A stretch of DNA of 7,908 nt from a virus (lineage: Duplodnaviria > Heunggongvirae > Uroviricota > Caudoviricetes). Both the position numbers and the translations under genes were made by a program. The notes beneath the pieces are model-generated. The model had not been told where the DNA came from. It saw only the letters and a program-made list of their open reading frames with translations, and ran no database searches. Each line of letters begins with the position of its first letter. Within the stretch, counting starts at the first letter, position 1. Positions 374-2,430 of the stretch are shown here, piece after piece. Location: IMG/VR virus record IMGVR_UViG_2660238398_000003. One strand, written 5' to 3'.

Positions 374-397
374 AAAACCCGCTCGACGGCGGGTTTA
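374..397 (-). terminator. Intrinsic-terminator-like hairpin upstream of the holin (candidate tR'-type element)
   Basis: Plus strand aaacccgc-tcgacg-gcgggttt. On the minus strand the stem is followed by tttttccattttttgag (T-run). It sits about 140 nt upstream of the essD start; its right arm and loop are duplicated by the 31-bp repeat. Confidence 0.4.
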
Positions 398-444
398 AGC
401 TGTGTGACGAAGTTCGACGGCGGGTTTAAGCTGTGTGACGAAGT
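383..444. repeat. Perfect tandem duplication, 2 x 31 bp (tcgacggcgggtttaagctgtgtgacgaagt)
   Basis: Read directly: copy 1 at 383-413, copy 2 at 414-444, no spacer and no mismatches. Confidence 0.95.
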
Positions 445-482
445 AACCACTCTTAACAGCATAACCAATTTTTTACGTACGT

Positions 483-555
483 AAACTACTAAATGATATT
501 TGTGAGAATGCCACCACACCGCAAACTACTAAATGATATTTGTGAGAATGCCACC
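483..555. repeat. Direct repeat, 2 x 33 bp (aaactactaaatgatatttgtgagaatgccacc) separated by a 7-bp spacer (acaccgc)
   Basis: Read directly: copy 1 at 483-515, copy 2 at 523-555, exact. Unlike the other five duplications it is not strictly tandem. Confidence 0.95.
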
Positions 556-599
556 GAGTGTTCAAAACACCACCACAAATACATAAGAAAACTTCAACA

Positions 600-894
600 A
601 ATAACCAATGAATAATTTCCGATGTTATTTTTAGTTTGTTTAAATTAAGCTAAAGAATTATAGAGCGCTTATAAATAAGTGCCATTAATATAAATTAGCT
701 AATAGATTTATTTTCGTTCAAACAAGAGCCATGAATAGGATTAGATAGAAAAGGTTCAGATAAAAATAGAGATCTACTTCACAAATTAAATGAGAAACTA
801 AAACTTACATCTTGAAATAATCGCATTGATTAGATGAATATTTATCGCGCAGTGACATCATTTTTTAATAATAGTTCAAAAAAAAGGGCGTACA
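600..894 (+). promoter_or_regulatory. AT-rich upstream regulatory region of the porin gene, with a possible OmpR-box-like element around 803-822
   Basis: Very AT-rich 300 bp immediately 5' of the porin start. acttACATCTTGAAAtaatc resembles the OmpR C1-type box TTTACATTTTGAAACATCTA as I recall it. A GGG-containing RBS lies about 8 nt before the ATG at 895. Promoter elements were not mapped. Confidence 0.3.
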
Positions 895-1750
895 ATGAAA
901 AAATTAACAGTGGCAATTTCTGCTGTAGCTGCATCAGTACTGATGGCGATGTCTGCTCAGGCAGCAGAAATTTACAATAAAGACAGTAACAAGCTGGATC
1001 TATACGGGAAAGTTAATGCCAAGCACTACTTTTCCTCTAATGATGCAGATGATGGTGATACTACTTATGCCCGTCTTGGCTTCAAAGGTGAAACCCAAAT
1101 CAACGATCAACTGACTGGTTTCGGTCAGTGGGAATATGAATTCAAAGGCAACCGTGCTGAATCTCAAGGTTCTTCCAAAGACAAAACCCGTCTTGCATTT
1201 GCAGGCCTGAAATTTGGTGATTACGGCTCAATCGATTACGGCCGTAACTACGGTGTAGCATACGACATCGGTGCGTGGACTGACGTCCTGCCAGAATTCG
1301 GTGGTGATACCTGGACCCAAACAGATGTGTTCATGACTGGTCGCACTACTGGTGTTGCAACTTATCGTAACAACGACTTCTTTGGTCTGGTCGATGGCCT
1401 GAACTTTGCTGCTCAGTATCAGGGTAAAAATGACCGCACTGACGTAACTGAAGCCAATGGTGATGGTTTCGGTTTCTCCACTACTTATGAGTATGAAGGA
1501 TTCGGCGTGGGTGCAACCTATGCTAAATCAGATCGCACTGACGGTCAGGTCGCCTATGGTAAGAGCAAATTCAATGCCTCCGGCAAAAATGCGGAAGTAT
1601 GGGCTGCAGGCCTGAAATATGATGCGAACAATATCTATCTGGCTACCACATATTCTGAAACTCAGAATATGACCGTTTTTGGTAATAACCATATTGCAAA
1701 CAAAGCACAAAACTTTGAAGCAGTAGCACAATATCAGTTTGACTTCGGTC

Positions 1751-1795
1751 TGCGACCATCTGTTGCTTACCTTGCGACCATCTGTTGCTTACCTT
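1751..1795. repeat. Perfect tandem duplication, 2 x 22 bp (gcgaccatctgttgcttacctt) inside the porin gene
   Basis: Read directly: copies at 1752-1773 and 1774-1795. It shifts the frame by +1 and produces the stop at 1807-1809. Confidence 0.95.
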
Positions 1796-1853
1796 CAGTC
1801 AAAAGGTAAAGACCTTGGTGTTCATGGTGACCGAGACTTAGTCAAGTATGTCG

Positions 1854-1922
1854 ATGTCGGTGCTACTTACTACTTTAATAAAAACATGTCGGTGCTACTT
1901 ACTACTTTAATAAAAACATGTC
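1854..1922. repeat. Perfect tandem duplication, 2 x 32 bp (atgtcggtgctacttactactttaataaaaac) inside the porin gene
   Basis: Read directly: copies at 1854-1885 and 1886-1917. Together with the 22-bp duplication the net insertion is 54 bp, so the frame is restored downstream. Confidence 0.95.
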
Positions 1923-2047
1923 CACTTTTGTTGATTACAAAATCAACTTAATTGACGATAGTAAGTTTACCAAAACAGCTGGTATTGATACCGACGACAT
2001 CGTCGCTGTAGGTCTGGTTTATCAGTTCTAATCTGACTTACGAAAAA

Positions 2048-2082
2048 GATATGTTGCGGGAGGCTTTGCCTCCGCAACATAT
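2048..2082 (-). terminator. Long imperfect hairpin (atatgttgcgggaggc / gcctccgcaacatat) with a T-run on the minus-strand side
   Basis: Stem of about 15 bp. On the minus strand it is followed by ctttttcg; on the plus strand it sits 17 nt after the porin stop but without a downstream T-run. It could be a tR'-like terminator downstream of Q, or bidirectional. Confidence 0.4.
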
Positions 2083-2168
2083 AAGTGGAGCCCTCAAGCC
2101 ACTTCCTTTAGAAGCACTACCTTGCTTCTTACTATATAAACCTTCTGTTATATATTACCCTTTATTTT

Positions 2169-2196
2169 GGGGGCGTTTCCACGCCCCATTTTTAAT
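2169..2196 (+). terminator. GC-rich hairpin (ggggcgt-ttcc-acgcccc) followed by atttttaat: rho-independent terminator for the porin transcript
   Basis: Stem-loop plus a T-run on the plus strand, about 140 nt downstream of the porin stop and just before the 3' end of the convergent Q gene. Confidence 0.5.
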
Positions 2197-2280
2197 AACT
2201 TTTAGTAAACAATTGCATATCAATTAGAATTATTAGCAACGATATCCATATCTAACCGGATATCTAATGCCATTAACATC

Positions 2281-2323
2281 CCTTCAATTATGCCCTCAGC
2301 CTTCAATTATGCCCTCAGCCTTC
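2281..2323. repeat. Perfect tandem duplication, 2 x 19 bp (ccttcaattatgccctcag) inside the Q gene
   Basis: Read directly: copies at 2281-2299 and 2300-2318, with 5 further matching bases. Confidence 0.95.
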
Positions 2324-2391
2324 TGTAACCTTTTCCCGATATAACCATCCGAGCAGCAATGCTTACTTGCCAGTGACATGAATGTCATACC

Positions 2392-2430
2392 ACATACATA
2401 ATAATCTACTACATACATAATAATCTACTA
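2392..2430. repeat. Perfect tandem duplication, 2 x 19 bp (acatacataataatctact) inside the Q gene
   Basis: Read directly: copies at 2392-2410 and 2411-2429. Confidence 0.95.

Follow-up and report, generated by a model that had tools for sequence, protein, structure and literature searches.

Paired short duplications in a DLP12-like prophage contig of one Escherichia coli draft genome are probably unmerged assembly overlaps

Introduction

The question raised by the prophage locus described here is whether six short and perfect duplications, packed into some 2 kb, are a property of the bacterium or of the record in which its genome was deposited. The stretch of DNA analysed (hereafter the window, 7,908 nt) constitutes the entire NCBI whole-genome-shotgun contig AOQK01000099.1 of assembly GCA_000397405.1, a short 7.9-kb contig from a draft of at least 99 contigs. 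As the window and the public record agree byte for byte, the duplications belong to the deposited draft and were not introduced at some later stage.

The segment is an ordinary lambdoid prophage locus of DLP12-like type, collinear with its counterparts in thousands of E. coli genomes, and its genes are met in the order essD, porin, quuD, ylcG, rusA, ybcO, ninE and ybcN, onward to ybcK and emrE (gene names were taken from the RefSeq annotation of collinear loci and from Pfam hits on the window's genes). At the left end lies essD (19-234, minus strand, identified through RefSeq-annotated collinear loci), followed by a minus-strand terminator hairpin (396-375) within an AT-rich regulatory region. 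The prophage porin gene, which is nmpC/ompC-like and natively encodes 360 aa, occupies 895-2031 on the plus strand, and on the minus strand are found quuD (2220-2641), which encodes a Q antiterminator of natively 127 aa, and ylcG (2727-2868 in its native extent). Beyond ybcN the window holds an alpha/beta hydrolase gene, the large serine recombinase gene ybcK, ylcJ and the start of emrE. A structured RNA is unsupported, as a search of the window left every Rfam family below its gathering score.

Results

Tandem Repeats Finder, a separate repeat finder and a direct period scan all agree on the coordinates of the six duplications. The leftmost is a perfect 31-bp tandem duplication (d31, 383-413/414-444), the unit of which begins with the first base of the terminator loop and which leaves a single intact hairpin in place. 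Next comes a 33-bp direct repeat (483-515/523-555), intergenic and upstream of essD, whose copies are separated by the 7-nt spacer ACACCGC (516-522); repeat and filler together make the window 40 bp longer at this point than every homologue. Two perfect tandem duplications, of 22 bp (d22, 1751-1772/1773-1794) and 32 bp (d32, 1854-1885/1886-1917), fall within the porin gene, and two of 19 bp (d19a, 2281-2299/2300-2318, and d19b, 2392-2410/2411-2429) fall within quuD. The 95% reported for d19b by Tandem Repeats Finder reflects a shifted register, and in the register given here the duplication is perfect.

The junctions differ in what adjoins them. The second copy of d32 runs on into a 5-nt microhomology (ATGTC, extending the feature to 1922) and that of d19a into another (CCTTC, to 2323), each of which would be expected by chance at about 1e-3 per junction. 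The remaining tandem junctions show 0 nt (d31) or 1 nt of extra match (d22, and d19b, where the feature reaches 2430), and the sixth carries the 7-nt filler, which has no second occurrence in the window or in four comparison sequences.

An earlier note on this DNA had described six exact duplications within 383-2430, had assigned them to a terminator, an intergenic region, the nmpC-like porin and Q, and had seen none by eye in the other 5.5 kb. We recover the same coordinates and sizes, with every copy perfect, and the assignments hold (d31, the spaced 33-bp repeat, d22 with d32, and both 19-mers, respectively). The clustering is likewise borne out, in that a scan of the whole window for perfect tandem duplications of period 12-80 returned none elsewhere. 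The same class of duplication was found 0 times in ~185 kb of comparators, of which 100 kb came from UPEC132 (chromosome and prophage), and as such the density of six seen here lies far beyond chance.

A base-by-base comparison with UPEC132 (NZ_CP040456.1) reduces the peculiarity of the window to six insertions, 163 nt in total, together with changes at 966, 975 and 2808-2810, and nothing else. Each of the six insertions is a second copy of neighbouring native sequence, and the substitutions at 966 and 975, which lie in the porin gene, are both private and synonymous. All nine private differences fall within 383-2810; the change at 2808-2810 is the last anomaly before a 5.1-kb stretch (2811-7908) with 0 differences from UPEC132.

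A still closer comparator is contig AOQC01000076.1 of assembly GCA_000397245.1. The WGS prefixes and the GCA numbers of the two assemblies are each eight steps apart, which points to a single submission batch, and the two contigs were evidently deposited together. The sister contig measures 7745 nt, which is 7908 less the 163 inserted nucleotides, its ends match those of the window within 2 nt, and it carries none of the nine private changes; an identical contig exists in a second sample. The same prophage is further represented by five Logan contigs and one metagenome scaffold, and in the stretches that these share with the window every unit is single-copy. The check that the earlier note had proposed, namely to align DLP12-like prophages and ask whether each unit is single-copy in them, therefore has a consistent answer: all six units are present once in every comparator fetched, the same-batch sister assembly included.

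The search was then widened to public sequence at large. No match to 44-mers spanning the six junctions was found in 5,426 complete E. coli genomes, and 0 matches were returned for one junction scanned against species-representative genomes and for another scanned against JGI metagenomes. The variants at 966/975 and at 2808-2810 are absent from all complete E. coli genomes searched. In a gene index of 153 billion genes, the three altered proteins (truncated porin and QuuD, frameshifted YlcG) are each represented by one contig, with NCBI as the only source, while the neighbouring intact hydrolase is represented by 72 contigs drawn from NCBI, ENA and Logan read-level assemblies. The aberrant proteins thus have no Logan source in this index, the Logan set of which may not include the reads of the isolate in question. 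Natural polymorphism was rejected as an account of the duplications, given the absence of the junctions from the 5,426 complete genomes and the single-copy state of all fetched homologues.

The arrangement of the junctions proved to be informative. The six resolve into three pairs, at 413 with 515/522, at 1772 with 1885, and at 2299 with 2410, and each pair brackets a small piece of native sequence. The piece at 414-515 (102 nt, ancestral 383-484, followed by the filler at 516-522) overlaps its neighbours by 31 nt on the left and 33 nt on the right; that at 1773-1885 (113 nt, ancestral 1680-1792) does so by 22 and 32 nt; and that at 2300-2410 (111 nt, ancestral 2156-2266) by 19 nt on either side. 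A decomposition of the window into 25-mers against UPEC132 gives the same picture, in which the left part consists of blocks, each of them perfectly native, that succeed one another with overlaps, namely 1-413, 414-515 (plus the 7 nt of filler), 523-965, 976-1773, 1773-1890, 1886-2304, 2300-2411, 2411-2807 and 2811-7908. Were six events to fall independently in 1.9 kb, three pairs would be expected with P ~0.011, or ~0.002 if equal spacing is also demanded, and the confinement of six junctions to 1.9 of 7.7 kb has P ~0.004; these statistics for pairing and clustering were picked post hoc and are indicative only. The three-pair layout, the three further private changes and the 5-nt microhomology at two junctions are observations that go beyond those of the earlier note.

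Two simple rules for the geometry of the pieces were considered and set aside. A single fixed length for the small pieces does not hold, as their possible lengths (102/109, 112-118 and 106-112) share no value, and a fixed overlap of k-1, as would arise in a de Bruijn graph, is ruled out by overlaps that range from 19 to 33 nt.

In the deposited sequence, three genes are altered. The porin is identical to its relatives and in frame as far as L293, at which point d22 shifts the frame and a stop follows at 1809. QuuD is identical up to C77, where d19b shifts the frame and leads to a stop at 2363, with d19a located farther downstream in the gene. Last, ylcG is frameshifted by the combination of a T>A change at 2808 and a 1-bp insertion of C at 2810.

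Discussion

We consider it probable, at roughly 0.85, that the duplications are an assembly or gap-joining artefact of one draft genome, and we have the same degree of confidence that those in AOQK01000099.1 are not a real biological feature. On this reading, several separately assembled native pieces would have been joined to give the leftmost 2.8 kb of the contig, pieces of ~400-800 nt alternating with three of 102-113 nt. If the true overlaps of 19-33 nt between these pieces went unrecognised, the pieces would have been abutted instead of merged, and every unmerged overlap would then appear in the record as a perfect tandem duplication. From each short bridging piece a pair of duplicates would arise in this manner, one at each of its ends, and wrong bases at the ends of pieces may account for the 7-nt filler and possibly for the change at 2808-2810. 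We infer the joining step itself from the observed properties of the duplications, which are private, are paired, and enclose pieces that are native throughout; this combination is the footprint expected of overlapping pieces that have been abutted.

Such an error has precedent. In overlap-based assemblies, scaffolding can turn sequence shared by two contigs at their boundary into a tandem duplicate (Rhie et al. 2021, PMC8081667), and negative gaps require merging (PMC8849508). Two features that define a false duplication at a contig boundary are seen in the window as well: identical tandem copies of one native locus, and their absence from independent assemblies (the sister contig is clean and the 5,426 genomes lack the junctions). 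The duplicates may also lie at piece boundaries, a position with which their pairing around pieces of 102-113 nt and their unit sizes of 19-33 nt would be compatible. The false 'homotype' duplications described by Rhie et al. resemble those examined here in that one locus is written twice in tandem where pieces join, in their absence from independent assemblies, and in a size bounded by read or overlap length. They differ in that they come from long-read vertebrate assemblies, with duplicates about one read long and a gap between the copies, whereas the copies in the window measure 19-33 nt, are abutted without a run of N, and are paired around pieces of ~110 nt. As regards the size of the units, the default minimum overlap of the Celera Assembler is 40 nt (PMC4053942), and all six units are shorter than this, and so would fall below the sight of an assembler with such a threshold; we offer the link to the assembler used for AOQK01 as a suggestion.

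Some evidence counts against an artefact of this kind. The 5-nt microhomologies at d32 and d19a are a classical sign of polymerase slippage and are not predicted by a blind concatenation of pieces, although an alignment-driven join that latched onto a short terminal match would, in principle, predict them. Furthermore, we found no cause for the restriction of the anomalies to 383-2810, the base composition of which is not special and the porin gene of which is single-copy in most genomes. Low coverage of AT-rich sequence was rejected as such a cause, as 5800-7800 is equally AT-rich yet clean. Mixing of reads with a paralogous prophage copy was rejected as a source of the variants at 966/975 and 2808-2810, there being no complete genome with either variant and the best match reaching 97.8% over 91 nt.

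The alternative that deserves the most attention is that the duplications arose in vivo, in one clone, through a burst of serial slippage or template switching, for example during the repair of a break or stalled fork, in which 19-33 nt were re-copied at six points and point changes were left behind. The 5-nt microhomologies at d32 and d19a fit this account, as does the position of d31, whose first base lies in the loop of a terminator hairpin and hence at a plausible stall site; the substitutions and the small indel, clustered in the same 2.4 kb, are what might be expected of error-prone synthesis near a break. We nonetheless regard it as unlikely. Microhomology amounts to 0-1 nt at three of the junctions, another carries 7 nt of untemplated filler, and we know of no E. 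coli pathway reported to make such fillers. Three equally spaced pairs would require three similar episodes of double slippage, and the changes leave no trace in sister assemblies or in any other genome searched, nor are the aberrant proteins found among the Logan assemblies in the index, which may not cover this isolate. Ordinary replication slippage does produce perfect head-to-tail copies, and direct repeats of 5 nt are present at two junctions, but slippage events are rare and independent of one another, whereas the window has six in 2 kb, arranged in three regular pairs, against 0 in ~185 kb of comparison sequence; most of the junctions lack microhomology, one has filler, and none has been inherited by relatives. 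Defects in flap nucleases (rad27 in yeast, 5'-nuclease mutants of polA in E. coli) create a duplication mutator that acts genome-wide on units of tens of bases flanked by repeats of 3-12 nt. The short duplications of the window are of a similar size, but four of the six junctions are without flanking repeats, and the adjacent 5.1 kb of this contig has no duplications at all. The stronger statement that the duplications are real, and that paired back-slips of 19-33 nt some 100 nt apart, in concert with point errors, knocked out Q, the porin and YlcG in a single clone, is in our estimation quite improbable. If true, it would parallel, in a bacterium, the clustered rearrangements with microhomology known from eukaryotic break-induced replication, and the locus would record a local process of hypermutation that is unusual for E. 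coli.

An origin in vitro can also be envisioned, in which polymerase template switching during library amplification generated chimeras that entered a consensus of very low coverage. The microhomology at two junctions is compatible with template switching of this sort, and the anomalies are indeed restricted to one library and assembly. It would be necessary, however, for six chimeras each to win the consensus within 2 kb, beside a flawless 5.1 kb; the paired spacing of ~110 nt is not predicted, and the composition of the sequence offers no reason for a local collapse in coverage. We judge this origin to be very doubtful. Least credible of all, and in our view close to negligible, is the proposal that the duplications are the product of deliberate engineering, or are the target-site duplications left by insertion and excision of mobile elements, for which nothing speaks beyond the density of the changes. 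The filler of 7 nt aside, the window contains neither foreign sequence nor a recombinase site or marker scar; the duplicates are native, and the contig was deposited as part of a batch of drafts from isolates. The unit lengths of 19, 19, 22, 31, 32 and 33 nt are at odds with the short target duplications of insertion sequences, which have a fixed length specific to the element. A genuine insertion in the same porin gene is moreover available for comparison: the IS1 found in the DLP12-like porin of strain JKHS006 also disrupts the gene, but does so by adding 777 bases with an annotated transposase, and looks quite different from short duplications of native sequence. The nmpC gene of K-12 is similarly disrupted by IS5. 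The three candidates named by the earlier note thus fare unequally, with the artefact favoured, engineering unsupported, and error-prone repair disfavoured by the pairing of the junctions.

With an assembly artefact as the preferred reading, the truncations seen in porin, QuuD and YlcG would most likely be casualties of annotation, as opposed to real pseudogenes, and the genes would be intact in the bacterium. It had been claimed that the duplications decide the function of nmpC and quuD. This is correct for the record, in which both reading frames are truncated, and is probably incorrect for the organism. Pseudogene calls, presence/absence tables in pangenome studies and inferences on prophage viability that draw on AOQK01000099.1 would, as a consequence, be wrong. 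The pattern may also serve as a flag, applicable without access to reads, for unmerged overlaps in older draft genomes: perfect tandem duplicates of less than 40 nt, paired about one short piece apart, and seen in one assembly only, against a background of otherwise identical sequence.

A minor observation concerns other assemblies of this prophage. In related strains, the Logan contigs all begin near position 2139 and end at 7821, which hints at a branch in the assembly graph at 2139 in this lineage.

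Three further changes seen on the window contig alone share one 2.4-kb stretch with the duplications, at window positions 966, 975 and 2808-2810. The first two are synonymous substitutions in the porin gene, spaced 9 nt apart, while the third combines a substitution with a 1-bp insertion and shifts the reading frame of ylcG, so that the YlcG product is 53-54 aa long in the window as opposed to the native 46 aa. All of these changes are absent from the 5,426 complete genomes, and the sister contig of the same AOQ batch is also without them. A comparison case for the window porin is provided by E. 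coli JKHS006 (L002, NZ_CP147065.1), in which a true IS1 element, with 777 additional bases and its transposase annotated, has inserted into the porin of the same prophage at a site equivalent to just after window 1707, and this is a natural inactivation.

The window contains two good hairpins resembling intrinsic terminators, one directly 3' of the porin gene (2170-2187, plus strand) and one upstream of essD (396-375, minus strand); the latter could be the late-operon terminator upon which Q acts. No match to an Rfam family was found across the whole window.

Several related strains are represented by Logan assemblies, built at read level (L008-L012), and in all of them the prophage segment is broken at the same two points, window 2131-2139 and 7821, which suggests that short repeats or branch points exist at both places in this lineage. 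The former, at ~2139, falls between the porin terminator and quuD. Contigs of the AOQ batch are continuous through 2139 and end ~87 nt past 7821. Indels occur in two of these Logan assemblies: L008 lacks 1 bp at each of the homopolymers that correspond to window 2169 and 3935, and in L009 (SRR26637804) a 2-bp insertion (TG) equivalent to window 7083 splits the large serine recombinase encoded by ybcK into products of 339 and 147 aa.

The alpha/beta hydrolase annotated in KC-Dl-1 (347 aa) begins at an ATG that reads ATA in both the window and UPEC132 (window 4580-4582; 4582 is A, not G). In this lineage the start codon seems to be gone, along with the N-terminal portion of an apparent lipoprotein signal sequence, and gene callers fall back to a start at 4616 or 4625 in the window.
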